From a bacterium (GTDB lineage Bacteria > Patescibacteriota > Minisyncoccia > Phycocordibacterales > UBA2100): DNA of 64,000 bases. The stretch spans positions 8,052 to 72,051 of the forward strand of contig JAEUQT010000002.1 in assembly GCA_016789445.1 (NCBI GenBank), read 5' to 3'. The notes under the pieces are model-generated. The model saw only the letters and a program-made list of their open reading frames with translations. It ran no database searches and was not told the DNA's origin. This document shows positions 29,869-62,120 of the stretch, piece after piece (position 1 is the first letter of the stretch; every line of letters begins with the position of its first letter). The position numbers were made by a program, and so were the translations under genes.

Positions 29869-29869
29869 A

Positions 29870-30305: not shown

Positions 30306-30309
30306 ACAT

Positions 30310-30819: not shown

Positions 30820-30837
30820 TCAATCAACTATCAAGGT

Positions 30838-31303: not shown

Positions 31304-31307
31304 TTGA

Positions 31308-31370: not shown

Positions 31371-31391
31371 TCTCTCGTATCAAAAAGAGAA

Positions 31392-31423
31392 GCGCCCGAC
31401 GATGTGTCGGGCGCTTTTCGTTT
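31392..31423. terminator. Bidirectional terminator (GCGCCCGAC-gatgt-GTCGGGCGCTTTTCGTTT)
   Basis: Perfect 9-bp stem. It ends the rplL-remnant unit on the + strand and abuts the stop of the minus-strand receiver-like gene. Confidence 0.6.
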
Positions 31424-31826: not shown

Positions 31827-31941
31827 CGCGTATCTCCTTTCTGAAGAGTGCGAGGATCGAACAATACAACGATAATGCGGGTCAAGCAAGGAGATTTTTT
31901 ACCAGAAAATCACCTCATGCTACAATCCGCTTACTACGGAT

Positions 31942-33592: not shown

Positions 33593-33944
33593 CCGCCTTA
33601 CATATGGGACTTAAGCAGATGCAAAAGAAGTGGCGTGGATAGCCAGATTTTTTCTGTCCTTCCGATTGCCGCTTCCGAGCGGCTTTTTTTGTACCCGTGT
33701 GTAGCTCGTTGACAACTGAAGAACGACATCAAATTCAGCGTAGAGCCGCAAGGCTTTGCGTTGAGAAAGAAAACGAAAGAATCAAATGTTCTTATTTCTG
33801 GTTACAAGTCTCCAGAAATAAGATCAGGAACCTTCTTCCGAAAGGAAGGAGGCTTGTAGGACACCAAAACCTTCGTATCCTCTGCACTAGACATGCATGA
33901 TGCGAAGTAAAAGAACACGCGGTTCCCAGAATTCTCATAACGAG

Positions 33945-36895
<2,951 letters not shown>

Positions 36896-37170
36896 CGTTA
36901 GGGAATTGTGGGTATCCGTGTTCGCACGGTGTCCAACGCAAGTCTTTCGTTTTTGATGGTGTCGTTCTTCAGTTGCCAAAGGGCATGATCTTTTAGATAT
37001 TCGTGGATTTCAGAGAGGAAAGTCGCATGACTTCTCCTCGGCGGGGGTGAGGGATAGGCTCACACATTGGACATCTGTCCACTTCGGTCGGGCTAAGTTC
37101 CTCTATGAAGGGCAATGCTCTCTCCCCGCTCTTCTCTGAAATCCATGAATACTTAGACTATTGAAGATTC

Positions 37171-37281
37171 TGTGTTGGTGGTTTGGCGAAGGGGGTACAC
37201 CCGTTCTCATTCCGAACACGGCAGTTAAGCCCTTCTGCGCCGATGGTAGTCGAAAGGCGAGAGTAGGTCGCCGCCAACACA
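37171..37281 (+). rRNA. rrf: 5S ribosomal RNA
   Basis: CCCGTTCTCATTCCGAACACGGCAGTTAAGCCC...GCCGATGGTAGT, with terminal helix TGTGTTGGTGG/CCGCCAACACA. Confidence 0.85.
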
Positions 37282-37322: not shown

Positions 37323-37338
37323 TTATACTGTTTGATAT

Positions 37339-38124
37339 ATGTCCTGGGCTTCTCGCAGGCGTTTCGCATACATCTTCAGCTTTCTCGTGATCGTGGGCTC
37401 TCTCACGCTCATCCCGCTCGCGATGTATCTCTACGAGCCAGGGGATTGCTTCGACGGGAAAATGAATAACGGCGAGACCGCGATCGATAAGGGTGGAAGC
37501 TGTCGCTTGCTCGATGAGCGTGCACTCCTGCCGACGACGATCGTATGGTCGCGCGCGATGCCGGTGCGAATGCCGGGTGCGGAGCAGGGAAGTTTCAGTG
37601 CCGTCGCGTATGTCGAGAATCCGAATGTCGGTGCGGGTGTCATGGAGGCACCGTACATCTTCCGCCTCTATGATGAGAACAATGTGTTGGTCGCAGAAGT
37701 CGAAGGCGTGACGCCGATCATCCCTGGCAATGTGACGCCGGTTTTCGTCGGTGGCATCAATACCGGTTTCCGCAAAGCGACGCGCGCATTCTTCGAATTC
37801 ACGGCGCCCTTGGTGTGGCAGCGCCTGTATGATGCGACCGAGCCGATCACGGTCCCGACGAAAGAGATCGTGAATGCAAATACCGAACCGCGCCTCAATG
37901 CGGTTATCAGGAATGGCTCCGTCGTCGACCTCAAGAACACGCAGTTCGTCGCCATCGTCTTCGATACGGCAGGGAACGCGTTTGCCGGCTCTGCGACTGA
38001 AGTGCAGTTCCTCGAGCGTGGTAAGCAGATGGATGTCGCCTTTACGTGGCAGGATCCCTTCCCGTATCTTCCGGGCCGCATTGATGTCCTTCCGATCATG
38101 AAGCCCCTCATGGAGCCGCGCTAG
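37339..38124 (+). CDS. Hypothetical membrane-anchored extracytoplasmic protein
   Basis: N-terminal TM helix and a 230-aa soluble beta-rich domain. A TATACT hexamer sits 9 nt upstream of the ATG. The 309-aa minus-strand ORF over the same region looks like a GC-rich antisense shadow. Confidence 0.55.
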   Translation: MSWASRRRFAYIFSFLVIVGSLTLIPLAMYLYEPGDCFDGKMNNGETAIDKGGSCRLLDERALLPTTIVWSRAMPVRMPGAEQGSFSAVAYVENPNVGAGVMEAPYIFRLYDENNVLVAEVEGVTPIIPGNVTPVFVGGINTGFRKATRAFFEFTAPLVWQRLYDATEPITVPTKEIVNANTEPRLNAVIRNGSVVDLKNTQFVAIVFDTAGNAFAGSATEVQFLERGKQMDVAFTWQDPFPYLPGRIDVLPIMKPLMEPR

Positions 38125-38150
38125 CGCGCAGAGCCCCGCTGCGGCAGAAT

Positions 38151-39281
38151 GTGCGGATGTCAGGTTTTCTCGGGCGCCTCTTCGGACACATCGACTGGTA
38201 CCTATTCTTTGCGGCACTGAGTGTCTCCGTTCTTGGATTGGTGACGATGTATCCCTTCGGGCAAGGCGGCGAAGCCTTCTTCGATCGACAGATCATCTGG
38301 ATCGGCCTCGCGCTCCTAGTCTTCTTTCTCGCAGCGATACCGGAATATACATTCCTGCGCCGCACCCAGATCGTGACCACTCTCTACATCCTTATCCTCT
38401 CGCTGCTTGCGCTCATCTTTCTTACCGGAACCATCGTCAAAGGTGCGCAGCAGCGCTTCGACTTCGGTTTCTTCGCGCTGCAGCCGTCGGATCCGGCGAA
38501 GCTCATCCTTATCATCGTCTTGGCGAAATACTTCGCGCGGCGTCACGTCGAGATCGCGAACTTCAAGCACATTTTCATTTCCGGTGCGTATGCCGCTGCT
38601 ATCTGCGGACTCGTCTTCCTGCAGCCTGACTTCGGCGGCGCCATCATCATCGCGTCCATCTGGTTCGGTATGGTCTTGGTCGCCGGTATCTCGTGGAAGC
38701 ATCTCGCGTTCCTGCTTATAACCGGACTCATCGCCGCAGGGTCCTTGTGGATGTTCGTACTGCAGCCCTACCAGAAGGAGCGCGTGATGACGTTCATCCA
38801 TCCGTTAGCTGACATCCACGGTGCGGGATACAACGCGTATCAATCGACCGTTGCGGTCGGCTCAGGCGAACTGTTAGGAAAGGGAATCGGCTTCGGCACG
38901 CAGTCGAAGCTACGCTTCCTCCCCGAATACCAGACCGACTTTATCTTCGCCGCCTATGCGGAGGAGTGGGGATTCCTCGGCGTCCTCATCGCGCTCGGCC
39001 TTTTTGCGGTCATCGTGCTCCGTACGCTGGTCATTGCGAGTCATGGATCGGACAACTTCGCGGTCCTCTTCGGCGTCGGCATCGCGATCATGTTCCTGGC
39101 GCACATCATCGTGCATATCGGTATGAATCTCGGGCTCCTGCCGGTTACCGGTACGACGGTGCCGTTCATGAGTTATGGCGGCTCTCACTTGCTGACCGAG
39201 TTCCTCGCGCTCGGCATGCTCATGGGCCTGCGCCGCGCTGAGCGACCGCTCTCGCGCGAGAAGGAGTTACTCGGTGTATAA
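38151..39281 (+). CDS. SEDS-family peptidoglycan glycosyltransferase (RodA/FtsW)
   Basis: Ten TM helices with FtsW/RodA motifs (QPS.PAK...I...A.Y, DFIFA...EE.GF.G). Confidence 0.8.
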   Translation: MRMSGFLGRLFGHIDWYLFFAALSVSVLGLVTMYPFGQGGEAFFDRQIIWIGLALLVFFLAAIPEYTFLRRTQIVTTLYILILSLLALIFLTGTIVKGAQQRFDFGFFALQPSDPAKLILIIVLAKYFARRHVEIANFKHIFISGAYAAAICGLVFLQPDFGGAIIIASIWFGMVLVAGISWKHLAFLLITGLIAAGSLWMFVLQPYQKERVMTFIHPLADIHGAGYNAYQSTVAVGSGELLGKGIGFGTQSKLRFLPEYQTDFIFAAYAEEWGFLGVLIALGLFAVIVLRTLVIASHGSDNFAVLFGVGIAIMFLAHIIVHIGMNLGLLPVTGTTVPFMSYGGSHLLTEFLALGMLMGLRRAERPLSREKELLGV

Positions 39282-40462: not shown

Positions 40463-41818
40463 ATGACCCTGGTTCCGAAACGGGACTATCTCATCCTCCT
40501 TCTGGGAGATCTGTGTATTTTTGCTGCCTCGCTTTGGGTGGCGCTGACGCTGCGGTATCTGGAGATTCCGTCCCTGAGCTTCCTCAGTCTCCACACTGCA
40601 CCGTTTTCCATCCTCTTCGTGGCGTGGGTCGGTATCTTTTTCCTTGCCGGGCTCTATGGTCGCTACACCCGCATCTTTCGCACGAAGCTCCTCTCGACCA
40701 TCGTGTATACGCAGCTCATCAACGTCATCATCGCAGCCCTCTTCTTCTTCTTCGTCGAATTCTTCCTTATCGCACCGAAGACGGTCCTTCTCATCTATCT
40801 CATCGTCTCGTCGTTCCTTATTATCTTCTGGCGTGCGTTTCTCTATCCGCGTTTGCGTGGCGGTCGGAAGTTGAAGGGCGTGCTCATCGCCGCGGGAGCT
40901 GATGCTCGTGCATTGGCAGAAGAGATCGGATCGGATTCACGCTATCCCTTCGCCTTCGAATATGTCGTCGATACGTCGCAGACGCCATCACACGAGGTCA
41001 TCCAACACGCATGCCGTGTCGCCGAGGAAGACGATATTGCATTCCTCGTGGTGGATGTCTCCGACAATGCGATCCAGACGGCACTGCCGATCCTCTACGA
41101 TGCTGCGTTCCATAAGCGCCGCTTCGTGATGGTGAATATGATGGATCTCTATCAGGAAGTCTTCGACCGCGTCCCGCTCTCATTAGTGAAGTACGAGTGG
41201 GTGTTGGAGAATTCATCCATCTCACCGGCGTACGATATTCTGAAGCGACTCATGGATGTCGCTGCGGCGCTCATCGGTGGCGCGCTCTCGTTGCTCCTCT
41301 ATCCCTTTATCATGCTCGCGATCAAGCTTGATGATGGGGGAGATATTTTCATCAAACAGGAACGCGTCGGTCGCTTCCAAAAGCCCATCTATGTCTACAA
41401 GTTCCGCAGCATGACGGGGAATGACAGTGGCAAGTACGGCGAAAGCGGCAAGAGTGAACTGGTGGTTACGCGCGTCGGCCGGATCCTACGCGTCCTGCGT
41501 CTCGATGAGCTGCCACAGATCTGGAATGTCTTGAAGGGCGATCTCTCGGTCGTCGGACCGCGCCCGGAATTCCCGACGCTCGCCGAGCACTACAACGCAC
41601 GCATTCCATACTACAACGCGCGCTACCTCGTCACCCCCGGACTCACCGGTTGGGCGCAGATTTTGCACGATCGTCATCCGCACCACGGCACCGACGTCGC
41701 GGCCACGAAAGAAAAACTCTCGTACGATCTCTACTATTTCCTGCGTCGTTCGCTCTTGCTCGATCTCTACGTCATCTTCCAGACGGTACGTATTGTGCTC
41801 ACCGCGAAGGGCACGTAG
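40463..41818 (+). CDS. Polyprenyl-phosphate sugar phosphotransferase (WbaP/bacterial sugar transferase family)
   Basis: Four N-terminal TM helices plus the C-terminal catalytic domain (QERVG......YKFRSM.....DELPQ..NVL.GD.S.VGPRP). Confidence 0.85.
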   Translation: MTLVPKRDYLILLLGDLCIFAASLWVALTLRYLEIPSLSFLSLHTAPFSILFVAWVGIFFLAGLYGRYTRIFRTKLLSTIVYTQLINVIIAALFFFFVEFFLIAPKTVLLIYLIVSSFLIIFWRAFLYPRLRGGRKLKGVLIAAGADARALAEEIGSDSRYPFAFEYVVDTSQTPSHEVIQHACRVAEEDDIAFLVVDVSDNAIQTALPILYDAAFHKRRFVMVNMMDLYQEVFDRVPLSLVKYEWVLENSSISPAYDILKRLMDVAAALIGGALSLLLYPFIMLAIKLDDGGDIFIKQERVGRFQKPIYVYKFRSMTGNDSGKYGESGKSELVVTRVGRILRVLRLDELPQIWNVLKGDLSVVGPRPEFPTLAEHYNARIPYYNARYLVTPGLTGWAQILHDRHPHHGTDVAATKEKLSYDLYYFLRRSLLLDLYVIFQTVRIVLTAKGT

Positions 41819-41827
41819 TATCAGGAT

Positions 41828-42739
41828 ATGGCTGATAAAGCAGTAGTAACCGGCGGCGGAGGATTCATCGGTGCGCACATCGCTGATGCACTCGTCGCTA
41901 AGGGATTCGACGTGCATGTCGTCGACACGTTCGTCGCAGGGCGATTCGAAGATCGCATCAATCCGAGGGTGACCTATCACGAGGTAGACATACGGGATTA
42001 CGAAAAGCTCGTTCCAATCCTCAAGGATGCTGTGTATGTATTCCACGAAGCCGCGCTTCCGCGCGTGCAGTTTTCCATCGAGAATCCGATCGAGACGTTT
42101 GCAGTAAACGTCGAAGGTCTCGTCGCAACGCTGAAAGCTGCGCACGAAGGCGGTGTTCGTAAGTTCGTCTTCGCGAGTTCCGGCTCGGTGTATGGCGATC
42201 AGGAAACCATGCCGCTCACGGAAGATATGAGCGCGCAGCCGAAGAGTCCATATGGCCTGCAGAAGCATGTTGGCGAACTGACATGCAAGGTCTGGAGCGA
42301 GGTATATGGATTGCCGACGGTATGTCTTCGCTATTTCAACGTCTACGGTTCACGCATGGATCCGAACGGTGCTTATGCGCTCGCGGTCGGAAAGTTCATC
42401 AAACAGCGTCAGGACGGAAATCCGATCACCATCTGGGGTGACGGAACGCATAGTCGCGATTTCACCCATGTGACAGATGTCGTCAACGCTAACCTTTTGG
42501 CAGCGGAATCGACAAAGGTGGGGAAGGGAGAGGTTATCAATATCGGCGCGGGTAAGAACCGCACGGTGAACGAGCTCGCAGCAGCAGTCGGGGGACCTAC
42601 CGTTAACGAACCGGAACGCTTGGAGCCGGCGCACGCACTCGCCGACAATCGGAAGGCGAAGGAACTCCTCGGTTGGGAACCAACGATCTCGCTTGAAGAC
42701 GGTGTTGCCGAGCTTAAGAAAGCTGCAGGACTTACATGA
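41828..42739 (+). CDS. NAD-dependent sugar epimerase/dehydratase (UDP-hexose 4-epimerase-like SDR)
   Basis: TGGGGFIG Rossmann motif and YxxxK catalytic pair (SPYGLQK). Confidence 0.8.
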   Translation: MADKAVVTGGGGFIGAHIADALVAKGFDVHVVDTFVAGRFEDRINPRVTYHEVDIRDYEKLVPILKDAVYVFHEAALPRVQFSIENPIETFAVNVEGLVATLKAAHEGGVRKFVFASSGSVYGDQETMPLTEDMSAQPKSPYGLQKHVGELTCKVWSEVYGLPTVCLRYFNVYGSRMDPNGAYALAVGKFIKQRQDGNPITIWGDGTHSRDFTHVTDVVNANLLAAESTKVGKGEVINIGAGKNRTVNELAAAVGGPTVNEPERLEPAHALADNRKAKELLGWEPTISLEDGVAELKKAAGLT

Positions 42740-43497: not shown

Positions 43498-43527
43498 AAA
43501 GCGGGAACCAGAGGTTCCCGCTTTCCT
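43496..43527. terminator. Bidirectional terminator (AAAAAGCGGGAACC-aga-GGTTCCCGCTTTCC)
   Basis: Perfect 9-bp stem between convergent folD and the 43527-44417 gene. Confidence 0.6.
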
Positions 43528-44417
43528 TAGAGTGCATACTTCTGCTCGATTTCCGCACACGTTTGTTCGTGAGCGAGGACCTGAGCAGCTTCTTCCTTGG
43601 TGAGAGTCGGATGCACGAAGGAAACCACGGCGAAACGGTCATCTGTCGCGCCTGATTCACGTGCGGTGTCGACGACGCCATGCAGCGTGCCGTGTCCGTA
43701 CGCGTACTTCGTGATGGCTCCGAACTTCTTGCCGGGGAAGATGCAGATCGTGTCGTACTCGGTCTCGAGAATGCGGTGGCGCGTTCCCGATTCGTCGATG
43801 ACAACCAGTCCCTGTCGGCTGCCCCACCAATGGACGGTGATGCCGGCGCGATCGATATGAGCGGTCGCATCAGGCTTTCCGACTGCCCGCTCCAGATATC
43901 GGAGCGTGCGCGTGACGCATGCGCCGCCGATGAATGATTGCTCGAGCGAATAGGGAACCTGTATCCCGTTCGCAGCATGATATTCATCGAGCAGCGTGCC
44001 GACGAGCGTGGCGATTCCCAGTGAGCGACGATTCAGATCTTCCATCGCATGGAAAAGATCGGTGTACCGATCCACGGGAGCGGCTCGTGCGATCATGCGA
44101 TCGGCAGTTTCCTTGAAGCAGTGGAAGAACCACTTCTGCTCCCGTTCACTGCGGCGATAGAGGCCGCTGTCGTGCTGCCAGCCGACTTCATCGCGACCGA
44201 AGATGTCGGCTGCGAATGCGTCGCGATCCTCGCCGTCGATCATCCGGCGCACATCATTGATGATGGCCGGTGTATGTTCGGCGAGTACGCTCGGGTCGTA
44301 TCGGATCTGCAGGAAGCCTTGGCGAAGAAATGTTTCAACGCCGCCGGCTTCACGTATGGTTTCTCTAAGATCATAGGCGTGTGCCTCACTGCGAGACAAC
44401 GTCGCTGTACCGTGCAT
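43527..44417 (-). CDS. Hypothetical protein, possible Fe(II)/2-oxoglutarate-dependent dioxygenase fold
   Basis: 296 aa with a candidate HxD...H facial triad (AHIDRAG ... GHGTLH). The family assignment is tentative; a profile search is needed. Confidence 0.45.
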   Translation of the reverse strand: MHGTATLSRSEAHAYDLRETIREAGGVETFLRQGFLQIRYDPSVLAEHTPAIINDVRRMIDGEDRDAFAADIFGRDEVGWQHDSGLYRRSEREQKWFFHCFKETADRMIARAAPVDRYTDLFHAMEDLNRRSLGIATLVGTLLDEYHAANGIQVPYSLEQSFIGGACVTRTLRYLERAVGKPDATAHIDRAGITVHWWGSRQGLVVIDESGTRHRILETEYDTICIFPGKKFGAITKYAYGHGTLHGVVDTARESGATDDRFAVVSFVHPTLTKEEAAQVLAHEQTCAEIEQKYAL

Positions 44418-44578
44418 GAGAAAACTCCTTTTCCAGTGCCGGCTGTGAAGGTTCAGTATTGAACCCTGTAGCCCATCGTAGCCTCTTAAAAACGGGGGAT
44501 TTTGCCGCTTTCGGGATTCGTGGCCTCATATGGGGATATCTGGTGGATAACCGGAAACGGGGTACAATACGGCGCTAT

Positions 44579-45883
44579 ATGAAGTACCGTCTGGGAGCAG
44601 TCGTCATCCTCATTCTCGGGGCGCTTTTGGTGTGGTACGTCTACCAGTCTGAAGTCAGCGGCTCCAAGAAGTTCCGCCTCGGGCTCGACCTCTCGGGCGG
44701 CACCCAGCTCCTCTACAAGGCGGATACCAGCGCGATCGCGGGGGATGTCGAGGAATCGATGAATGCATTGCGTGAGACCATCGAGCGCCGCGTAAACCTC
44801 TTCGGCGTCGCGGAGCCGATCGTGCAGCGTGAGAAAGGAAGCTCGGTCGCGGGCGAAGGCGAGGAGCGCCTCATCATCGAATTGCCGGGAGTCACTGATG
44901 CGAACGAGGCGATCCGTCAGATCGGCCAGACGCCGGTTCTCGAATTCCGCATGCTCAAGGAAGATGCGCCACAAACCGCATCGACGACGGTGAACGAGCA
45001 GTTCGGTCCAGCCATCCTTACCGGTCGCCACATCAGCCGCGCCGAATTGCAGTTCGGTCAGGCAGGAGGCTTCTCCAACGAGGCGGTGGTCGTCATCCAT
45101 TTCAATACTGAAGGTAGGGACATCTTTGCGAAGACGACTAAGGATAATGTCGGCAAGGTATTCGGCATTTTCCTCGATGGAACGCCGATCTCCACGCCGG
45201 TCATCAACGAGGCGATCCCTGATGGTACGGCGGTCATCTCAGGCAGCTTCACGCCGGACGCGGCGCGTGAACTTGTGCGCAACCTCAACTTCGGCGCACT
45301 TCCAGTACCGATCGATCTCGTCTCGACGCAGACCGTGTCCGGTACGCTCGGTGGCGAAGCGGTGCAGGACGGTGTCATGGCGGGCCTCATCGGTTTCGCG
45401 GCGGTCGCACTCTTCATGATCCTCTGGTACCGCCTTCCGGGTTTTGTCGCGATCCTCGCCCTCTCGGTCTACGTCATCCTCTCGCTCGCGCTCTTCAAGC
45501 TCATTCCAGTGACGCTCACGGCGGCGGGTATCGCCGCATTCATTCTCTCGATCGGTATGGCGGTGGATGCCAACGTACTTATCTTCGCCCGCATGCGTGA
45601 GGAGTTGGCTCGCGGTAAGGATATGGAAGAAGCGATCCACGACGGTTTTGCGCGCGCATGGCTCTCGATCCGCGACTCGAATATCTCTTCCATCATCACC
45701 GCGATCATCCTCTTCTGGTTTGGTACTTCGATCATCCAGGGCTTCGCACTTGTCTTCGGTCTCGGCGTGGTGATCTCGATGTTCACGGCGATCACGGTCT
45801 CGCGCACGTTCCTCCTCGCTATTGCCCCCAAGAAGGCTGGTCGTATGACCAAATTCCTCTTCGGTAGCGGCATCAAGATCTAA
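44579..45883 (+). CDS. secD: Protein translocase subunit SecD
   Basis: LGLDLSGGT motif, a periplasmic domain and six C-terminal TM helices. Start chosen at MKYRLG (signal/TM helix). The upstream in-frame ATG at 44459 would add 40 non-conserved residues. Confidence 0.85.
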   Translation: MKYRLGAVVILILGALLVWYVYQSEVSGSKKFRLGLDLSGGTQLLYKADTSAIAGDVEESMNALRETIERRVNLFGVAEPIVQREKGSSVAGEGEERLIIELPGVTDANEAIRQIGQTPVLEFRMLKEDAPQTASTTVNEQFGPAILTGRHISRAELQFGQAGGFSNEAVVVIHFNTEGRDIFAKTTKDNVGKVFGIFLDGTPISTPVINEAIPDGTAVISGSFTPDAARELVRNLNFGALPVPIDLVSTQTVSGTLGGEAVQDGVMAGLIGFAAVALFMILWYRLPGFVAILALSVYVILSLALFKLIPVTLTAAGIAAFILSIGMAVDANVLIFARMREELARGKDMEEAIHDGFARAWLSIRDSNISSIITAIILFWFGTSIIQGFALVFGLGVVISMFTAITVSRTFLLAIAPKKAGRMTKFLFGSGIKI

Positions 45884-45884
45884 T

Positions 45885-46790
45885 ATGCTTATCGTCAAAT
45901 ACAGGAACACGTTCTTCGCACTCACTGCAGCCCTTGCGGTGGCGGCGCTCGTCGTGCTAGGTGTCTTCGGGCTCCACATCGGTACCGACTTCACGGGCGG
46001 GGCACTCATTGAAGTGCAGTATCCGCAGAATCGTCCTTCGGTAGAGGAAGTGAAAGAATCCCTCACGAATGCGGGACTTGAAGATGTGACCGTGCGTGGT
46101 GCAGGAGAATACAGCTACATCGTGCGTGCCGCGCCGCTCTCGCAGGATGCTCGCGCGAAAGTTGCTGAGGCGGTCGCTATCAACGGCACGCAGCCGGTCA
46201 TCGAGCGCCTCACTGACGTTGGGCCCTCCATCGGTTCGGAGCTCCGCACGAAGGCGATCATCGCGCTCGGTCTCGTGGCGCTCTGCATCATGCTCTACAT
46301 CGCCTTCGTCTTCCGCAAGGTCTCGAAGCCGGTCTCTTCATGGGTATACGGCGTGATCACGGTCATTACGCTCTTGCATGACCTCGCGATCCCGCTCGGC
46401 GCGTTCGCGATCTTCGGACATCTCTGGGGTGCGCAGGTGGATACGCTGTTCGTCACCGCGATCCTTACGGTCCTCGGCTACTCGGTGCACGACACCATCG
46501 TCGTATTCGACCGAACTCGTGAGAATCTGCGTCTCAATGAGGAGCATAAGCGCAAGGAGGACTTCGAGCACGTCGCAGGACGCTCGATCGAGCAGACCTT
46601 CGTGCGCTCGGTGAACACTTCGATGACCACGCTCGTCTCGCTCGGAGCCCTCTTCTTCTTCGGCCCGGTCGCGACGCAGGATTTCGCACTGACGCTCATC
46701 ATCGGTGTCATCGCGGGAACCTATTCTTCCATCGCACTTGCGACGCCGCTCCTCGTCGCCTACGAACGCTGGAGTGCCAAGCGTTCCTAA
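45885..46790 (+). CDS. secF: Protein translocase subunit SecF
   Basis: DFTGG motif and six TM helices, directly downstream of secD. Confidence 0.85.
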   Translation: MLIVKYRNTFFALTAALAVAALVVLGVFGLHIGTDFTGGALIEVQYPQNRPSVEEVKESLTNAGLEDVTVRGAGEYSYIVRAAPLSQDARAKVAEAVAINGTQPVIERLTDVGPSIGSELRTKAIIALGLVALCIMLYIAFVFRKVSKPVSSWVYGVITVITLLHDLAIPLGAFAIFGHLWGAQVDTLFVTAILTVLGYSVHDTIVVFDRTRENLRLNEEHKRKEDFEHVAGRSIEQTFVRSVNTSMTTLVSLGALFFFGPVATQDFALTLIIGVIAGTYSSIALATPLLVAYERWSAKRS

Positions 46791-47278: not shown

Positions 47279-47306
47279 TTGACAGGGGTCGGAAAGCGAC
47301 TATACT
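47279..47306 (+). promoter_or_regulatory. 16S rRNA promoter TTGACA-N16-TATACT
   Basis: Consensus-like hexamers about 250 nt upstream of 16S. A terminator-like structure (GGGGTCCGC...GCGGACCCC + TCTTTTAT, 47208-47254) precedes it. Confidence 0.5.
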
Positions 47307-47554
47307 GCCTCTACTTGTCTCACTCTACTGATCTAGAGCTTCGTGAGATCGAGGATCCCACGAGGCCTTCTTTGGCGTGGGGTAGACCTTTGAAAACTGA
47401 AGAGAGAAACAAACGATCTCCGACCCGCAAGGGTTCGGGGAACACACACATAAGCAAGAACACAAGAAAGTAAAAGAAAGCATTGGAACAAAAGATGTAC
47501 ATTCTTTTGTTCCGTCCAACCTAATCAAGATAGGAGTAGAAATACTCCGTCTTT

Positions 47555-49015
47555 AACTGAGAGTTTGATCCTAGCTCAGGGTGAATGCTGGCGACGTGGA
47601 TAGGGCATGCAAGTCAAGGGGACCGCAAGGTAACCGGCAGACGAGATAGTAACGCGTAGGAACGTACCCAGAAGTCGGGCACAGCTCGCCGAAAGGCGGG
47701 GTAATTCCCGATGGTCTCGCAAGAGTAAAGATTTATCGCTTCTGGAGCGGCCTGCGTAATATCAGCTAGTTGGTGAGGTAATGGCTCACCAAGGCTATGA
47801 CGTTTAGGGGAGCTGAGAGGCTGACCCCCATCGATGGAATTGAGATACGGTCCATACTCCTACGGGAGGCTGCAGTCGAGAATATTCGACAATGGGCGAA
47901 AGCCTGATCGAGCGACGTCGCGTGGTGGATGAAGTCCTTCGGGACGTAAACATCTTTTATGAGGGAGGAAGTTATTGACGTTACCTCATGAATAAGGGGC
48001 TCCAAACTCTGTGCCAGCAGGAGCGGTAATACAGAGGCCCCAAGCATTACCCGGAATCATTGGGCGTAAAGGGTGCGTAGGTGGTCATATTAGTCGAATG
48101 TTAAATCCCGGGGCTTAACTCCGGAATCGCGTTCGAAACGGTACGACTCGAGAGCGTGAGAGGTGAATGGAACTCATGGTGTAGGGGTGAAATCCGTTGA
48201 TATCATGGGGAACACCGAAAGCGAAAGCAATTCACTGGCACGTTTCTGACACTCAAGCACGAAAGCGTGGGTAGCGAACGGGATTAGATACCCCGGTAGT
48301 CCACGCCCTAAACGATGATAACTGGATTTAGGGAGTATCGACCCTCTCTGAGTCGAAGCTAACGCGTTAAGTTATCCGCCTGGGTAGTACGGTCGCAAGA
48401 CTAAAACTCAAAGGAATAGACGGGGGCTTGCACAAGTGGTGGAGCGTGTGGCTTAATTCGTCGCTAAGCGAAGAACCTTACCAAGGTTAGAAATCCTACT
48501 GCACGCCTTCCGAAAGGAAGGAAGCCTTCGAGGGTGTAGGACAGGTGATGCATGGCTGTCGTCAGTTCGTGGTTTGAATCGTTCCCTTCAGTGGGGTAAC
48601 GAACGCAACCCTCGTTGCCTGTTATATTTGTCAGGCGAGACTGCCCCCTCACGGGGGAGGAAGGTGGGGATGACGCCAAGTCAGCATGTCCCTCTGATAT
48701 CTTGGGCTGCACACGCGCTACAATGGCTACTACAGCGGGGCGCGACGGGGTAACCCTGAGCAAATCCTTCAAAAGTAGCCTCAGTTCGGATTGAGGTCTG
48801 CAACCCGACCTCATGAAGCTGGAATCACTAGTAATCGCGGGTCAGCCACACCGCGGTGAATACGTTCTCAAGCCTTGTACTCACCGCCCGTCAAGTCAGG
48901 GGAGTTGGGAGTGCCCGAAGCGCATCCTTGCGATGCTTCAAGGCAAACTCAATGACAAAGACTAAGTCGTAACAAGGCACGGGTAGCGGAAGCTGCTCGT
49001 GGATTCATTCTAAAC
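47555..49015 (+). rRNA. rrs: 16S ribosomal RNA (unlinked from 23S-5S), with a non-canonical 3-prime tail
   Basis: GAGTTTGATCCTAGCTCAG start, CTCCTACGGGAGGCTGCAG, GTGCCAGCAGGAGCGGTAATAC, GGATTAGATACCCCGGTAGTCC, AAACTCAAAGGAATAGACGGGGG and GTCGTAACAAGG. The 3-prime end reads GGATTCATTCTAAACAACCTTCTCTT instead of GGATCACCTCCTTA, so the exact 3-prime boundary is uncertain. Confidence 0.85.
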
Positions 49016-49174
49016 AACCTTCTCTTCGGAGAAGCTGTTAGTCGATTCGTATGCCTCAATTGAGCATACGAGGGTCATGACACTACGACCCCTCAATGTG
49101 TCGGACAACGCGGGAAAGACCGCGGGTTAATGGACGGAACAAAAGAGTGTGTATTGTGTGACGTAAACAAAAAC

Positions 49175-49207
49175 AAAGGCCGCCTTCTCTGGCGGCTTTT
49201 TGTTTGT
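49175..49207. terminator. Bidirectional terminator (AAAGGCCGCC-ttctct-GGCGGCTTTTTGTTTG)
   Basis: It ends the 16S transcription unit and lies just downstream (in minus-strand sense) of the stop of the 49-aa minus-strand ORF. Confidence 0.55.
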
Positions 49208-49267
49208 CGGAATATGGATGCGGCGCGTCTTTCGACGCGCCGCGGAATGTACTGAGATCAAAGTCGA

Positions 49268-49417
49268 TCAGCGTGCGCCGGGTCGCTGGCAGGCCCTGTC
49301 GGTCTCGGCTCGTGCCTGGTCTTGCCATGCCTGCCGACGGCTGACTTTGCCGGACTTGAATCGGCCGGTTGCCTCCTTGCGATCTTCCTTCTTACGCGAA
49401 TCGTTGCCTTTAGCCAT
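49268..49417 (-). CDS. Hypothetical small basic protein (49 aa, MAKGNDSRKKEDRKEATGRFKSGKVSRRQAWQ...)
   Basis: GAGGAG lies 6 nt upstream of the ATG, a terminator is just downstream, and the sequence is lysine/arginine-rich like small ribosome-associated proteins. The longer tabulated ORF (to 49675) runs through the tRNA antisense and is rejected. Confidence 0.4.
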   Translation of the reverse strand: MAKGNDSRKKEDRKEATGRFKSGKVSRRQAWQDQARAETDRACQRPGAR

Positions 49418-49602
49418 TTCTAGCTCCTCTGAGACTTTGAAAGCGGCTTCGCACCTGCCGCGCTCAGAAAGGTAGCATGTCAGCCATATTTTTGCTACTA
49501 TCCTTTCCACGTTGGGGAACCAGCGATATGTGCGTTGAGCTCCGGCGGATGATGCTGATAGTTGGGCCGGGGAGGTGCGTGCTGATAGAGTGACACAATA
49601 AC

Positions 49603-49674
49603 GCGCGTTTAGCTCAGTGGTAGAGCATCCCTCTGATAAGGGGAAGGCCGTAGGTTCAATCCCTACAACGCGCA
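49603..49674 (+). tRNA. tRNA-Ile (anticodon GAU)
   Basis: Manual cloverleaf: acceptor GCGCGTT/AACGCGC, D-arm GCTCAGTGGTAGAGC, anticodon stem TCCCT/GGGGA with loop CTGATAA (anticodon GAT), variable AGGCC, T-arm GTAGGTTCAATCCCTAC, discriminator A. A TGcTACTAT extended -10 at ~49489-49498 may drive it. Confidence 0.85.
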
Positions 49675-49687
49675 CTAAAGACAGAAA

Positions 49688-51180: not shown

Positions 51181-51307
51181 ATTGGCCAAACGAGGCTTAC
51201 TGCGTACAATGCCTCCGAAGGGCACGTGGTGGAATTGGTATACACGTACGTTTCAGAAGCGTATTCCGCAAGGATTGGGAGTTCAAGTCTCCCCGTGCCC
51301 ACTGAAT

Positions 51308-52675: not shown

Positions 52676-52784
52676 AATTAGGTAGATGAAGAAGTAATTG
52701 CCGCAATCGTAGCATGGGCCGATAACCAGCATGTGGGTTGTGCACTGCGTTGTGCTCTCTAGGAGGCTCGGCTAGAATCGACCA

Positions 52785-53855
52785 ATGAACGCGCCCATTC
52801 CCGGACCCTCGTTTTTCATCGGGAAGGGCGACGAATCCCTTATTTCCTTCGGTTCCGGACAGCCGGATCTTCCGCCGCCGGAGGAGGCGTTCCGCATCCT
52901 GCAGCAGTATCGCGGCTTCAAATATGGTCCGGTACAGGGATCCGTCGCCCTGCGCAGCGAGCTCGCGAAGCTGTATCCGGACGCTGAGCCGCATCAGTTC
53001 GTCATAACCAATGGGGCGTCCGAGGCGATTGATCTCGTCTTGCGCGCGATCTACGAACCGGGTGGCAAGATCCTTTTGCCGCGGCCGTACTACTACTCGT
53101 ATCCGCACAACGTGACCTTGGCGCACATGGAGCCGGTCTACTATGACCTTGATGAAAACGGGAAGATCAATCTCGGTACCTTCATGGAGGCAGCGAAGGG
53201 TGTCGTTGCGGTGATGATAAACTCGCCATCGAATCCGACCGGTACCGTACAGGAGGTTGAGACCCTGAAGGCGATCGAGCAGTTTTGCGCGCGAGAAGAT
53301 ATCTACATCATCTCCGATGAGGTCTACAAGGATCTCATCTATGTGCGCGAGAATTATCTCCTGCATGGTCCGCATGTGGTGACCGTCAATTCGTTTTCTA
53401 AGACGTACGCTATGTGTGGTCTCCGTGTCGGATACGTATATTCGCAGGATCAGGAGCTCATCGAGAAGATCATCGAGATGAAGACACACACGGCGATGAA
53501 CACGAGCATTCCGGCGCAGGAGATGGCGATCGCGGCGCTCGCTTCACCGCGCTCGTATGTGACGGATTACGTCGAAGTATGGAAAGCGCGCCGCGACCTC
53601 ATGTACCAGGGAATGAAGGCGCTCGGCCTCGAATTGTGGGAGCCGGAGGGGGCGTTCTACGTGCTCCCTAAGTTCAAGCACTCGGGGAGGGTCGTGAGTG
53701 ATTTATACTATACGTACCGCATGATCACGTATGACGGCGCCTGGTTCGGTGCCTCGGATCGCGTGCGGTTCAGCTACGCCCTGGATGTCTCGAAGATCGA
53801 AGAGGGTCTGAAGCGACTGAAGCAATTTCTTGAAAACGAGTACAAAAACTATTAA
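52785..53855 (+). CDS. Pyridoxal-phosphate-dependent aminotransferase, class I/II fold
   Basis: NSPSNPTG, SDEVY, and SFSKTYAMCGLRVGY (PLP-lysine region). Confidence 0.8.
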   Translation: MNAPIPGPSFFIGKGDESLISFGSGQPDLPPPEEAFRILQQYRGFKYGPVQGSVALRSELAKLYPDAEPHQFVITNGASEAIDLVLRAIYEPGGKILLPRPYYYSYPHNVTLAHMEPVYYDLDENGKINLGTFMEAAKGVVAVMINSPSNPTGTVQEVETLKAIEQFCAREDIYIISDEVYKDLIYVRENYLLHGPHVVTVNSFSKTYAMCGLRVGYVYSQDQELIEKIIEMKTHTAMNTSIPAQEMAIAALASPRSYVTDYVEVWKARRDLMYQGMKALGLELWEPEGAFYVLPKFKHSGRVVSDLYYTYRMITYDGAWFGASDRVRFSYALDVSKIEEGLKRLKQFLENEYKNY

Positions 53856-54817: not shown

Positions 54818-56094
54818 CCGTCCTCGGTCTCGGTCTGCTTGGTCGGGGTATTGGGGATGCTGCGTTCATCGCATCGCAGGGCGGCATTGTAACGGTTACT
54901 GACCGGAAATCCGGTGCCGAGCTTCAGGAATCCATTCAACGACTTGCGGAATACGACATCACGTTCCATCTCGGCGGACATATTGAGAGCGACTTCACCG
55001 ATACCGATATGGTAATCAAGGCGGCGGGCGTGCGCCTCGATTCGCCGGAAATCGCGGCCGCGCGCGCGGCGGGTGTTCCGGTCTATATGTCGACCGCGCT
55101 TGCGGCGAAATTTGCCGCTGAGTCCGGAGTAACCGTCGTTGGTGTGACCGGCACGCGCGGCAAATCGACCGTGACCCACATGATTCATCACGCGCTGGTG
55201 GCAGCAGGAAAGCGAGCGCACCTCGGCGGCAATATCCGCGGTGTCTCGACCTTGGCACTGCTGCCGGAGATGCAGAAGGGCGACTTCTTGGTTCTGGAAC
55301 TTGATTCGTGGCAGCTGCAGGGATTCGGGGATCTCGAGATGAGCCCGAATGTAGCGGTGTTCACGAATCTGCAGACCGACCACCAGAATTACTATCCTGA
55401 TATGGATACGTATTTCAGTGATAAGGCGAATATCTTCCGTTTCCAGAAGAAAGGGGATTCGCTCATTGCGACGCCCGAGCTTGCGGAAAAGATCACGGCG
55501 ATCGCGGCGGGGGAAGAGGCATACCGCACGCATGTCGAATCTCCCGCACCTGCAGAATGGAAACTCAACATGCCGGGCGAGCACAATCGCGTGAACGCGG
55601 CACTTGCGGCCGCGGCACTTGAGGTGCTTGGTCTGAGCGCCGAAGAGGTCCGTACTGGTCTTGAATCATTCGCTGGCGTGGAAGGCAGGCTCCAGTTCGT
55701 CCGCGAATTCGCCGGCGTGAAAATCTATAACGACAACAATGCCACCACGCCACAAGCCACTATTGCGGCTCTTCAGGCGCTTGATGCAGGAAAGAAAAAC
55801 ATCATCCTCATCATGGGCGGGGCAGATAAGGGACTTTCTTTCGACGATCTTCTTGGGCAGGCTGAGAAAAGTTGCAAGGAAGTAGTATTGCTCACCGGAA
55901 GCGGCAGCGACCGTGTGTTCGATAAGAAAGCGATGTATCGCTATGACGATCTCGATATGGCAGTTCAGGCGGCCCTCGGGCGCTCGCAAGAAGGTGACGT
56001 TCTCCTCTTCAGCCCGGCGTTCGCATCATTCGGTATGTTCAAGAACGAATACGATCGTAACGATCGATTCCTTAAGATCATCAACGCACTATGA
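54781..56094 (+). CDS. murD: UDP-N-acetylmuramoyl-L-alanine--D-glutamate ligase
   Basis: N-terminal Rossmann G.K..V.GLGL.GR, GVTGTRGKST P-loop, and a Mur-ligase central and C-terminal domain. Overlaps the murI 3-prime end by 37 nt. Confidence 0.75.
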   Translation: MAHQQFFNGKRVTVLGLGLLGRGIGDAAFIASQGGIVTVTDRKSGAELQESIQRLAEYDITFHLGGHIESDFTDTDMVIKAAGVRLDSPEIAAARAAGVPVYMSTALAAKFAAESGVTVVGVTGTRGKSTVTHMIHHALVAAGKRAHLGGNIRGVSTLALLPEMQKGDFLVLELDSWQLQGFGDLEMSPNVAVFTNLQTDHQNYYPDMDTYFSDKANIFRFQKKGDSLIATPELAEKITAIAAGEEAYRTHVESPAPAEWKLNMPGEHNRVNAALAAAALEVLGLSAEEVRTGLESFAGVEGRLQFVREFAGVKIYNDNNATTPQATIAALQALDAGKKNIILIMGGADKGLSFDDLLGQAEKSCKEVVLLTGSGSDRVFDKKAMYRYDDLDMAVQAALGRSQEGDVLLFSPAFASFGMFKNEYDRNDRFLKIINAL

Positions 56095-59564: not shown

Positions 59565-59584
59565 AAAGCGCTATACTATCGGGA

Positions 59585-61354
59585 ATGCAACCCATCAGGG
59601 ATAGTGGGGCTGATGATGAGCGCCGCATCACGTACTTTGCGACGACCCATACCCGCGGCAAGCGGGAGATGTTCGGCATACGTGCGGTAGATCGCGGTAA
59701 GCACATGTACGTGATCGGGAAAACCGGTATGGGGAAGTCCACCATGCTCGAGAACATGGCGATCCAGGATATCCAGAACGGGGAAGGTATCGCGTATATC
59801 GATCCGCATGGTTCGACGGCGGAGAAACTTTTGGATTTCGTTCCGCATGAACGAATCAAGGATGTGCTCTACTTCGCGCCGTTCGATACCGACTATCCAG
59901 TGGGCTTTAATGTCATGGAAGATGTTGGCTACGACAAGCGTCACCTCGTCGTCTCAGGCCTCATGGGTGCCTTCAAGCGCATCTGGGTCGATGCTTGGTC
60001 GGCACGTATGGAATACATCCTCCAGAACGTCCTCCTCGCGCTTCTCGAGTATCCCGGCTCCACACTCCTCGATGTGAACCGCATGCTCACGAACAAACCC
60101 TTCCGTGCGGCGGTCATCGAAAAGATCACCGACCCCATCGTGAAAGCGTTCTGGACAGAGGAGTTCGCAACCTACACCGATCGCTATACCCAGGAAGCGA
60201 CGCCAGCGATCCAGAACAAGGTGGGTCAATTCGTAGCGAATCCTTTGATCCGCAATATCGTGGGCCAGCCGAAATCGACATTCAACCTGCGTCAGATGAT
60301 GGACGAAAAGAAGATTTTCATCGTGAATCTCTCCAAGGGGCGCATGGGTGAATCGAATGCCGCGCTCTTAGGCTCGATGCTCACGGTGAAGATCTATCTC
60401 GCGGCGATGTCGCGTGCCGATGAGCCGCCCGCACGCATGGCGAAGCTGCCACGCTGCTATTTCTATGTCGATGAGTTCCAGTCGATGATGAATGAGGCGT
60501 TCGCCGACATCCTTTCGGAATCGCGCAAATACAAGCTCGCGCTCACCCTCGCAAACCAGTACATCGAGCAGATGGAGGAGAATGTACGCAATGCGGTCTT
60601 CGGCAACGTGGGAACACTCGTCACGTTCCGCGTGGGACCTTTCGATGCGGAGGTCTTGAAGACGGTTTTCGAACCGACGTTCGAAGCGGAGGATCTCGTC
60701 GGCCTCGGTCTCGGTCAGATCTACCTCACGCTCATGATCGATGGCGTGGGATCGGCGCCATTCTCAGCCGAGACGGTTCCGCCTATCGAGGCGCCGCATG
60801 TTTCGTATCGCGAGGACGTCATTCATCACACGCGCAGCGCACACGCGAAGCACCGTTCGGAAGTCGAGGCCATCATCGGGAAGCGGCAAGAAGAATTTGC
60901 GCCGCCTCCGAAAGCACCACCGCGAGAGCGCGATCGATATCCGCGGGAGAACAATTCTGGTGCAAACGGTAATCACCAGCGAGCACCGCAGCCGCGACGA
61001 GAAGATCGTCCTCGTGACGAGGCTCCGCGCGAACCGCGACCGCAGCAACCACAGCCAGCGCCCGTGGCAGAACAGCGCTCGGCTCTGCGAGATGCGATCG
61101 CATCGGTCCAGAAGAAGCCGGAGGAGGTACCAAGGAGCGACGTTCGTTCGCCAGCAGAAATCATGCGTTCGCGCCTCGCCAAGAAAATGGCACGACATGC
61201 GGGCGATGCACCTCCGGAATTCCCGCGCGCACCGCAGGCTCAGCCACAGCCCGTGCGGCCTCCACGAGTTGAATCTGAGGCGCCCCGAACTCCGCGAGCC
61301 AAGCGCGATGAAATCGCAACCGAAGACCTCAAGAAGATATTGAGCGGGGACTAG
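59585..61354 (+). CDS. P-loop NTPase of the FtsK/HerA/TraD-TrwB (type IV coupling-protein-like, DUF87-like) superfamily with a ~160-aa Pro/Arg/Glu-rich disordered C-terminal tail
   Basis: Walker A VIGKTGMGKST, IDPHGS (resembling the DPKG motif of coupling proteins), Walker B YFYVDEFQ, KYKLALTLANQ. There are no TM segments. The C-terminus from ~aa 430 is low-complexity P/R/E/Q-rich. A TATACT hexamer lies 7 nt upstream of the ATG. Confidence 0.55.
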   Translation: MQPIRDSGADDERRITYFATTHTRGKREMFGIRAVDRGKHMYVIGKTGMGKSTMLENMAIQDIQNGEGIAYIDPHGSTAEKLLDFVPHERIKDVLYFAPFDTDYPVGFNVMEDVGYDKRHLVVSGLMGAFKRIWVDAWSARMEYILQNVLLALLEYPGSTLLDVNRMLTNKPFRAAVIEKITDPIVKAFWTEEFATYTDRYTQEATPAIQNKVGQFVANPLIRNIVGQPKSTFNLRQMMDEKKIFIVNLSKGRMGESNAALLGSMLTVKIYLAAMSRADEPPARMAKLPRCYFYVDEFQSMMNEAFADILSESRKYKLALTLANQYIEQMEENVRNAVFGNVGTLVTFRVGPFDAEVLKTVFEPTFEAEDLVGLGLGQIYLTLMIDGVGSAPFSAETVPPIEAPHVSYREDVIHHTRSAHAKHRSEVEAIIGKRQEEFAPPPKAPPRERDRYPRENNSGANGNHQRAPQPRREDRPRDEAPREPRPQQPQPAPVAEQRSALRDAIASVQKKPEEVPRSDVRSPAEIMRSRLAKKMARHAGDAPPEFPRAPQAQPQPVRPPRVESEAPRTPRAKRDEIATEDLKKILSGD

Positions 61355-61355
61355 T

Positions 61356-62099
61356 ATGCGTATCATTGCGGCACTCATCCTCATGGTGCCGTGTCTCGCG
61401 TCTGCGCAGGTCTCGATAACCGAGATCATGTATGACCTGCACCAAGGTTCGGACAGCGGTCGGGAGTGGATCGAGGTGTATAACAGCGGTACTGCTACCG
61501 TTGATCTTACGAAATGGAAGCTCGTGGAGAGCGGGAAGAATCACAAGATCTCGAAAACGAGAGGGGGTCTTGCTGCGGGTACGTATGCAATTATTGCGGA
61601 CAATCCCACCAAGTTCGCCGTTGATCATCCTGACTACGCAGGCGCGTTGTTCGATAGCGCATTCAGCCTGAGCAATGACGGTGAGATGCTCTTCCTGTAT
61701 GCGCCGGACGATGTTCTTGCAGACGAAGTCGGATTCACCAAAGAAGACGGAGGTAGCGGGACCGGGGACTCCCTGCAGCGCGTGGATCTTGAAGCGCGCG
61801 TCTTCTCTCCGGGGATTCCGACACCGGGAGCATCAATTCCTGAGAGCGGCCTTGCACGAACGCCGCAAGTGTCTAGCGGCTCGGAATCGAAAACGGTCTC
61901 GGCGCCGATTTCAGCGACTCCTATACAAGGTGAGCCAGTGAAGCGCAGTGGACTTCAGATCGCCGCAGCAGGAGGTACTGACGTGCCGGCAATCATGTGG
62001 TGGGGCGCCGTCGTTCTGATCGCACTCTGGGGAGCGGGAGGGATCGTCTATGCACGGCGCTTGCAGGGAACCGAGTGGGAGATCATTGAAGAAAGCTGA
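61356..62099 (+). CDS. Lamin-tail-domain (LTD) protein with a signal peptide and a C-terminal TM anchor
   Basis: Signal peptide MRIIAALILMVPCLASA. The LTD signature ITEIMYD....D.GREWIEVYN.G...VDLT.WKL...G is present, followed by an S/T-rich linker and a C-terminal hydrophobic helix (AIMWWGAVVLIALWGAGGIVYA). Starts 2 nt after the ATPase stop. Confidence 0.6.
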   Translation: MRIIAALILMVPCLASAQVSITEIMYDLHQGSDSGREWIEVYNSGTATVDLTKWKLVESGKNHKISKTRGGLAAGTYAIIADNPTKFAVDHPDYAGALFDSAFSLSNDGEMLFLYAPDDVLADEVGFTKEDGGSGTGDSLQRVDLEARVFSPGIPTPGASIPESGLARTPQVSSGSESKTVSAPISATPIQGEPVKRSGLQIAAAGGTDVPAIMWWGAVVLIALWGAGGIVYARRLQGTEWEIIEES

Positions 62100-62120
62100 A
62101 AAAGGGGCTACTCTGGCGCA

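Follow-up and report, generated by a model that had tools for sequence, protein, structure and literature searches.

Pairing between the Shine-Dalgarno (SD) motif of an mRNA and the anti-SD motif of the 16S rRNA tail is the textbook route by which bacteria reach their start codons; to lose the anti-SD completely is rare. Its CCUCC is near-universal in 16S tails, yet it is not required by RF00177, the Rfam model of bacterial small-subunit (SSU) rRNA. Our subject is a 16S rRNA gene whose 3' tail has no CCUCC, together with the gene starts around it. The gene lies in 64,000 nucleotides of bacterial DNA (contig JAEUQT010000002.1, positions 8,052 to 72,051, assembly GCA_016789445.1), which we call the window and number from its first letter. 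With a probability of about 70%, we think that initiation here is SD-independent: leaderless mRNAs would arise from promoters adjacent to the ATG, some downstream genes would be reached by stop-start coupling, and relaxed selection would account for the missing anti-SD.

The closest described case is that of Tsurumaki, Saito, Tomita & Kanai (RNA 2022, PMC9297842), who detected an anti-SD motif in 48% of Parcubacteria. The Parcubacteria without one overlap the group that lacks ribosomal protein uL1, and SD helices probably do not form in them (PMC9297842). That paper offers no initiation mechanism, and the term 'leaderless' is not in its text. The window belongs to the same clade, likewise has no CCUCCU, and its rplK does not stand before rplA; what the present analysis adds to that paper is the tail GAUUCAUUCUAAACAACC with its covarying trailer hairpins, and the promoter-at-ATG architecture. 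Anti-SD loss is already published for this clade, and the window adds a lineage and a distinctive invariant tail to it, not a new phenomenon. What is new is a testable account of how starts may be found without an anti-SD, through ATG-locked promoter boxes and stop-start coupling. Further afield, the anti-SD has been lost in Flavobacteriia (Chryseobacterium, Elizabethkingia, Riemerella, Blattabacterium), Mycoplasma, Ca. Carsonella and Ca. Hodgkinia (PMC3457768; PMC6107228), in surveys (Lim et al. 2012, PMC3457768; Amin et al. 2018, PMC6107228) that list no taxa of the candidate phyla radiation (CPR). Like these organisms, the window has no CCUCC, no enriched SD motif and no compensating variant SD. 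Unlike the window, they belong to other phyla and are mostly AT-rich endosymbionts or Bacteroidetes with leadered mRNAs, and the position-locked -10 box at the start codon that we see in the window has not been reported for them.

Leaderless mRNAs abound in Mycobacterium and other Actinobacteria, in Deinococcus-Thermus, in haloarchaea and in Sulfolobales, and GeneMarkS-2 (Lomsadze 2018) is said to have a leaderless class. With these prokaryotes the window shares a TAnnnT some 6-7 nt before the start, stop-start overlap in operons and a preference for AUG. Actinobacteria and Deinococcus, however, keep the anti-SD and an SD on many genes, whereas the window has no anti-SD and carries its boxes in dense same-strand runs as well. 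In Actinobacteria, Deinococcus-Thermus and archaea leaderless transcripts have been shown experimentally, while the window is known from sequence alone; it has three sequence marks of a genome dominated by leaderless transcripts, namely a fixed-distance -10 element above background, no SD enrichment and AUG starts. In open-access PMC and bioRxiv, an incomplete base, we found no literature tying CPR, Patescibacteria, Parcubacteria or Saccharibacteria to leaderless genes. Bacteroidetes offer a different precedent. Their genes naturally have no SD and are initiated from other mRNA features, according to Baez et al. 2019 (PMC6847099), and they combine a retained anti-SD with leadered mRNAs that have Kozak-like A-rich positions. 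The window departs from that arrangement of an anti-SD kept and mRNAs free of SD: its 16S has no anti-SD, and its main signal is the promoter box next to the ATG.

RF00177 covers the window from 47553 to 49014 on the + strand, a gene of 1462 nt matched over model positions 1-1533 at 1363 bits, where the gathering score is 50. The preliminary description was right to call the remainder of the 16S recognizable. Helix 45 (48978-49001, +) is intact, with a 10 bp stem and a GGAA loop (CACGGGTAGC-GGAA-GCTGCTCGTG), and a single-stranded 3' tail follows it, as in SSU rRNA generally; the CCUCC is what is missing. The covariance-model alignment pairs the model tail GAUCACCUCCUUA column for column with GAUUCAUUCUAAA, and in a focused scan of 48780-49250 the last 14 positions of the model, GGAUcACCUCCUUu, become GGAUUCAUUCUAAA with maximal posterior throughout and zero insertions. 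In E. coli numbering, which is our own mapping of the alignment columns, the anti-SD core at 1535-1539 reads AUUCU in place of CCUCC. Since AUUCU fills the aligned CCUCC columns and nothing is inserted, the anti-SD was lost by substitution. The absence of a canonical anti-SD was first noticed by eye, with sequence and coordinates that prove accurate, and it now stands on an alignment; the small insertion suggested as its cause does not, because the 13-nt tail aligns without one. It was also correctly observed that no CCTCC comes before the terminator at 49175. On the + strand the first one downstream of the 16S is at 49372.

The gene forms a complete, functional-looking transcription unit with a near-consensus promoter of its own (47279-47306, +; TTGACA-16 nt-TATACT, 11/12 matches). 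By inspection, a leader strand, TACATTCTTTTGTTCCGTCC (47498-47517, +), is complementary to a trailer strand, GGACGGAACAAAAGAGTGTGTA (49132-49153, +), and the two probably form the processing stem of pre-16S rRNA. An intrinsic-terminator-like hairpin with a T-run (49175-49205, +) ends the unit. These features bear on the explanation of the tail as an artefact: the reads or their assembly might be in error, or the gene might be a pseudogene or hold an intervening sequence, the real CCUCC tail being lost or lying further downstream. Insertions are indeed frequent in CPR rRNA genes, the relative L004 has a LAGLIDADG open reading frame (ORF) next to or within its 16S, and contigs of metagenome-assembled genomes (MAGs) often end inside rRNA genes. 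Against this, a gene aligned from 1 to 1533 without a 3' insertion and without a CCTCC ahead of its terminator also has its promoter, processing stem and terminator in place, and the same 19-nt tail with the same structured trailer is found in 10 independent assemblies. We give an artefact next to no weight, less than any other explanation considered here.

The relatives behind that comparison came by two routes. Among loci found through SecF, only a contig of an independent Paceibacterota MAG, DATMBM010000016.1 (L006; SecF ~70% identical) has a complete 16S; the 16S genes of the closest relatives (L001, L002, L004 and L007) are interrupted by contig ends and give no 3' ends. A metagenome scan with the probe CTCGTGGATTCATTCTAAAC yielded 8 further contigs. 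The tail GGATTCATTCTAAACAAC(C) is identical in L006 and these 8 contigs, and across the 10 assemblies the invariance of the tail (49002-49019, +, with AUUCU at the CCUCC position) extends through AAC, the last bases differing in L006 and L131. The same tail in independent assemblies means that the missing anti-SD is not an assembly error, as had been feared. It had also been held that relatives with identical tails and normal SD usage would make the tail a benign variant; the identical tails exist, and normal SD use was not seen.

How far the loss extends can be judged from a panel of 120 genomic loci, taken from a scan with a nearby 16S signature (A1396U) and sorted by type of helix 45. CCTCC is missing in 50/50 loci with the Paceibacteria-type helix (GGCACG...CGTGG), which represent 49 distinct genomes and a duplicate of L006 and include Paceibacterota, Nomura-, Taylor-, Zambryski-, Ryan- and Adlerbacteria, among others. 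In 22/24 CPR genomes with a GGCATCC-type helix (Magasanik-, Falkow-, Uhr- and Moranbacteria) GATCACCTCCTT is retained, and Peribacteria and Gracilibacteria have variant tails such as CACTTCC and CATCTCC. Within the clade that has no anti-SD the tail varies (GAAUAAUUCAAUU, GAUUAAUUCAAUU, GAACAAUUAAAUU and, in the window, GAUUCAUUCUAAA) around the consensus G-A-(U/A)-(U/C)-A-A-U-U-C-A-A-U-U, in which G1530, A1531, A1534, U1537 and mostly C1538 are kept. Judged from these genomes, the missing anti-SD characterizes the entire clade and is not a local defect.

By its sequence markers the window is itself CPR/Patescibacteria, of the Parcubacteria/Paceibacteria group. SecF, encoded 760 nt upstream of the 16S, has its taxon-named matches in Candidatus Paceibacterota (70% identity) and Minisyncoccia (65-74%), and the helix-45 sequence GGCACGGGTAGCGGAAGCTGCTCGTGG is common to MAGs named Paceibacterota, Nomura-, Taylor-, Zambryski- and Adlerbacteria. 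The short 16S (1462 nt), its altered 515 site and the order nusG-rplK-argS fit CPR/Parcubacteria too. A PVC/Planctomycetes origin, at which the 5' signatures of the 16S and the unlinked rRNA genes might hint, is rejected by the protein matches, which favour CPR. In that order (2408-5113) nusG and rplK directly precede argS and not rplA, rplJ (30310-30819) is 27 kb off, and no ORF of the window has an L1 (uL1) domain. An rplK without rplA beside it fits the published uL1-lacking group of Parcubacteria, although it is not proof of absence.

Might the tail have become a different anti-SD, one that pairs with an equally altered SD in mRNA leaders? The candidates are AUUCU itself and the CCUUCUC about 12 nt further on, which the preliminary description proposed, and there is some encouragement for them: a pyrimidine-rich run, CCUUCUCUU, lies just past the tail, and for some purine-rich upstream regions the duplexes computed with the tail, taken as 28 nt, are strong. 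The CUUCUC, however, turns out to be the 5' arm (49019-49024) of a UUCG-capped spacer hairpin, CTTCTC-TTCG-GAGAAG (49019-49034, +), which contains ACCTTCTCTT and whose stem is compensated in L006, L128-L130 and L132-L135. Among relatives with the same tail the stem reads ATTCTT/AAGAAT, CTTTC/GAAAG, TTTCC/GGAAA, ACTTC/GAAGT or ATCC/GGAT, and GTCCC/GGGAC in L006, while the loop stays UUCG or similar. Such compensatory changes make the CTTCTC stretch a structural element of the spacer and not an anti-SD. Nor do gene starts pair unusually well with the conserved 17-nt tail, GAUUCAUUCUAAACAAC: the mean duplex energy is -3.05 at starts and -2.83 in controls (p=0.96), with no enrichment. The CCUUCUC run lay outside this pairing control, and its rejection rests on the covariation. 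The -10 boxes described below, 6-7 nt from the ATG, leave no room for a leader that holds an SD, and in earlier surveys no organism turned up whose variant anti-SD had a variant SD to go with it (Amin 2018, PMC6107228). A divergent anti-SD is, in our judgment, very improbable.

Canonical SD motifs fare no better. We called ~51 long ORFs in the window and compared their upstream regions with 289 internal in-frame ATGs. SD-like 5-mers occur within -20..-4 of 4/52 starts and 15/289 internal ATGs (p=0.51), and starts pair with the canonical anti-SD no more strongly (mean duplex energy -4.18 kcal/mol) than controls do (-4.83). The three canonical-looking SD sites that had seemed to conflict with the tail occur at this chance frequency, and the conflict dissolves. 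One of them, a GAGGAG (49418-49429, -), lies 6 nt upstream of the ATG of a 49-residue, very basic ORF (MAKGNDSRKKEDRKEATGRFKSGK..., 49268-49417, -) situated between the 16S terminator and tRNA-Ile, an ideal SD spacing. The ORF has no Pfam match; its counterpart in L006 (~18385-18612, -) has GGGAG upstream. Another of the SD-bearing genes, which encodes 296 residues (43527-44417, -) on the opposite strand between folD and secD and has no Pfam match either, is preceded by an AAGGAG(G) motif. It is present only in the lineage of the window and L001 (L001 6623-7468, -) and missing from L004 and L006, which is compatible with a recent acquisition that still carries a foreign SD.

What does mark the starts is a promoter-like box. 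A -10 box with a spacer of 5-9 nt precedes 15/51 starts and 7/289 internal ATGs (Fisher p=4.8e-9). Of the 51 longest-ORF starts, whose choice took no account of the motif, 9 have a TAnnnT with its first base exactly at -12, where the background is 0.0066 per position, and when all candidate ATGs in the first 40 codons are profiled there is a sharp peak at a spacer of 6 nt (11 observed, 0.94 expected; p=6e-9). Aligned on the box, 21 sites have T in 19/21, A in 21/21, any three bases, and T in 20/21, with a G two nt upstream in 15/21, as in an extended -10 element; no clear -35 element appears in this alignment. Every boxed start is an ATG. Boxes are found inside dense same-strand runs too (for example at 5375, 6985, 11020, 14370, 15432 and 18260), where they sit within gaps of 10-40 nt or overlap the end of the upstream gene. 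Homology-guided corrections of the start add further boxes, for argS (3452), ftsW (38157), secD (44579) and recA (20639). The starts derive from ORF logic, and for eight of them knowledge of the motif entered into the refinement; the unbiased tally is 29% boxed and ~16% coupled, the refined one ~22/52 genes boxed and 8 coupled only.

The boxed sites on the + strand are those of nusG (TAGAAT-N6-ATG, 2396-2410), argS at its refined start (TACAAT-N6-ATG, 3440-3454), a RecD2-like helicase gene with a leaderless-type start (TACACT-6 nt-ATG, 5363-5377), ileS (TACGAT-N7-ATG, 6972-6987, in a 20-nt gap after the upstream gene), a TATCAT-N6-ATG at 11008-11022, a gene of the AI-2E transporter family (TATCAT-N6-ATG, 14358-14372), ssb (TATACT-N6-ATG, 18248-18262), a gene for 261 residues (TACTGT-N7-ATG, 37326-37341), ftsW, again refined (CAGAAT-N6-ATG, 38145-38159), an epimerase gene (TAGTAT-N6-ATG, 41816-41830), secD (TACAAT-N10-ATG, 44563-44581, its refined start equal to the one called in L001), an aminotransferase gene (TAGAAT-N6-ATG, 52773-52787), a VirD4/TraD-like gene (TATACT-N7-ATG, 59572-59587) and a second epimerase gene (TACTCT-N6-ATG, 62109-62123). 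On the - strand are efp (TAGAAT-N8-ATG, 19530-19546) and recA (TACATT-N6-ATG, 20637-20651), whose product has 355 residues, the Pfam RecA domain beginning at residue 101 of the longer ORF. Coupling is seen at 10/51 starts, which lie -4..+12 nt from the stop of an upstream same-strand gene, eight of them without a box. In metG-tatD stop and start overlap as ATGA (16874-16877, +), and further coupled starts are ATGA at 42736-42739 and 56091-56094, TAAtATG at 45881-45887, TAGtATG at 61352-61358 and TAGgtATG at 10423-10430. Termination-reinitiation would fit these genes.

Transcription usually starts ~7 nt after a -10 box. With a spacer of 6 nt the usual start therefore falls on the A of the ATG, and promoter-to-ATG geometry of this kind is that of leaderless genes in Actinobacteria, Deinococcus and archaea. 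SD-independent initiation in the window would then run as follows. An extended -10 box (G-n-T-A-n-n-n-T) ends 6-7 nt before the ATG in many genes; RNA polymerase would begin at or beside the A and make a leaderless mRNA; and a ribosome carrying initiator tRNA would recognize the 5'-terminal AUG directly. This route may hold even within tightly packed runs of genes on one strand. A second set of genes, which start -4 to +6 nt from an upstream stop (ATGA, TAAnATG), would be served by termination-reinitiation. If SD pairing is unused, the 16S tail can drift freely. The sequence itself shows the anti-SD loss and how far it extends in the clade, the missing SD enrichment, and a position-specific -10 box that orthologs keep; where transcription starts, where the mature 16S ends and how the ribosome acts are what we infer.

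The box could instead belong to translation. Initiation might be SD-independent on leadered mRNAs, as in Bacteroidetes, with unstructured A-rich leaders, Kozak-like positions and possibly S1, and TAnnnT would then be an AU-rich translational signal. About 40% of the window's genes lack both a box at 5-10 nt and coupling, CPR genomes encode short S1 proteins, and Bacteroidetes are a precedent for bacterial initiation without SD on leadered mRNAs (PMC6847099). The informative positions of the box, however, are those of a sigma-70 -10 element (T1, A2, T6) with a G at -14, and its fixed spacing of 6-7 nt is the usual distance from a -10 element to the transcription start. The same type of box stands ahead of tRNA genes, TGcTATAAA 13 nt before the mature 5' end of tRNA-His (185-206, +) and GcgTACAAT 9 nt before that of tRNA-Leu (51202-51219, +), and since tRNAs are not translated this speaks for the box as a promoter rather than a signal for translation. 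That boxed starts are all ATG is also expected of 5'-terminal start codons. We regard leadered initiation of the Bacteroidetes kind as unlikely overall; it is possibly true of the unboxed genes but an improbable account of the box.

At orthologous genes of L001, L004 and L006 the flanks have diverged, yet the box is still present at 6-10 nt. It reads TATACT, TATACT and TATAAT, respectively, in front of the 261-residue gene (at 6-7 nt) and TACAAT, TATACT and TACAAT in front of secD. For ftsW it is CAGAAT in L001 and TATAAT in L006, both at 6 nt, and the nearest box-like element in L004, CACAAT, is 15 nt upstream; the first epimerase gene has TAGTAT-N6 in L001 and L004 and TAATAT-N9 in L006. Among pipeline-called starts in these three loci 18/39 have a box at 5-10 nt, the murA start called in L006 having been discarded because it falls within tRNA-Ile. 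Beyond the immediate relatives, 48 other genomes with the Paceibacteria-type helix 45 show the spacer-6 peak (24 against 7.2 expected, p=6e-7), as do other CPR genomes without CCUCC (9 against 2.0, p=2e-4); these cross-CPR samples are small and their starts crude. Campylobacterota controls have no box peak and an SD peak at 5 nt.

Several points weigh against our reading of leaderless, SD-independent initiation. CPR genomes that keep the anti-SD also have a spacer-6 peak, though a weaker one (11 against 5.8, p=0.03), so the leaderless architecture is not specific to the clade without an anti-SD; no SD enrichment is visible in these genomes either. The pattern is a tentative sign that initiation of the SD-independent, leaderless type predates anti-SD loss and extends more broadly, and the causal link between the two is our interpretation. 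Leaderless status itself is argued from promoter-to-ATG geometry only. The genes with neither box nor coupling, such as rplJ (30310), murA and a GT4 gene whose box lies 26 nt upstream, must use another SD-independent route or have miscalled starts. The box statistics come from only ~50 genes in the window. A second 16S copy with CCUCC may exist elsewhere in the genome, the 64-kb window having a single visible 16S. Finally, the invariance of GAUUCAUUCUAAACAACC in 10 assemblies hints at some remaining function outside this account.

We put a bolder version of the leaderless reading at somewhat less than even odds. In Paceibacteria, and possibly in much of the CPR, initiation would be essentially free of SD, most genes being individually leaderless, also within dense gene arrays, from extended -10 promoters 6-7 nt ahead of the AUG, with re-initiation at stop-start junctions serving the others. 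SD-independence would have come first and decay of the anti-SD afterwards, and the invariant tail together with the structured trailer would have taken on a different function, such as one in the processing of rRNA or the binding of factors. If the architecture holds genome-wide, SD-tuned gene callers misplace starts in CPR MAGs (several starts in the window had to move), the design of expression constructs for the few cultivable Patescibacteria gains a guide, and it becomes relevant to ask which steps came first as ribosomes were reduced, SD-independence perhaps preceding anti-SD decay.

The trailer deserves a description of its own. Its ~120-140 nt are strongly structured (z = -4.45 for 48975-49210), and several of its hairpins are compensated among relatives, in a comparison that spans window 49015-49160, L006 17776-17935 and L128-L135. 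It contains the conserved motifs CTGTTAGTCGATT (49035-49047, +) and GYTGTTAGTCGATT, and the trailer strand of the processing stem is likewise conserved in L006 and L128-L135. A GTCGA(T) core lies 20-50 nt past the 16S in many CPR genomes, keepers of the anti-SD included. An Rfam E-value scan of the trailer gave sub-threshold chance matches only (Phe and Leu leaders on the terminator; PhotoRC-I). In Peribacteria/Peregrinibacteria (L011, L024, L028, L038, L079, L080 and L099), where the tail cores are CAUCUCC and CACUUCC, the spacer alters in step with the core (…CCAGGGAG and …CCAGGGAA), which suggests that a pre-rRNA hairpin masks the variant anti-SD there and covaries with it.

Two other sites in the 16S depart from the usual. 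The decoding centre (48866-48882, 16S positions 1392-1408) reads GTACTCACCGCCCGTCA, that is, A1396U. The genome scan finds this change across the CPR (Paceibacteria-type, Magasanik-, Peri-, Gracili- and Berkelbacteria), in MAGs labelled Saccharibacteria that have a helix 45 and tail of Paceibacteria type, and in Campylobacterota, of which it is also typical; it has no tie to anti-SD loss. The 515F primer site (48016-48034) is GTGCCAGCAGGAGCGGTAA instead of GTGCCAGCAGCCGCGGTAA, and standard amplicon primers likely miss the lineage.

The rRNA genes are split and reordered (33942-37279; 47553-49675): 23S-5S is followed by ~10 kb of protein genes (ftsW, glycosyltransferases, folD and secDF), then by the stand-alone 16S, tRNA-Ile and murA. 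Relatives with 70-92% SecF identity (L001, L002, L004-L007) keep this order with a spacer of ~10-14 kb. In L004 a LAGLIDADG homing-endonuclease ORF (15424-15951) lies at the 5' edge of the 16S and shares ~50 nt with the start of the Rfam match (from 15899); insertions of this kind are typical of CPR rRNA, and the window's 16S does not have this one. The promoter box of tRNA-Ile, tgCTACTAT, is ~95 nt from the tRNA in the window (49494-49602) and ~11 nt from it in L006 (18668-18688), the window having an extra segment between promoter and tRNA. Elsewhere in the window, the ileS product (6985-10425, +) has a histidine-phosphatase/phosphoglycerate-mutase-like domain inserted at ~481-642, between the two halves of its IleRS match. 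A block at ~24300-31900 has an atypical GC content by codon position, with third-position GC (GC3) of ~0.5 as against ~0.7 elsewhere; it encodes a protein with a peptidoglycan-binding domain (24892-26853) and an LCAT/PGAP1-like protein of lipase fold (27000-29384), and may be a horizontally acquired segment.

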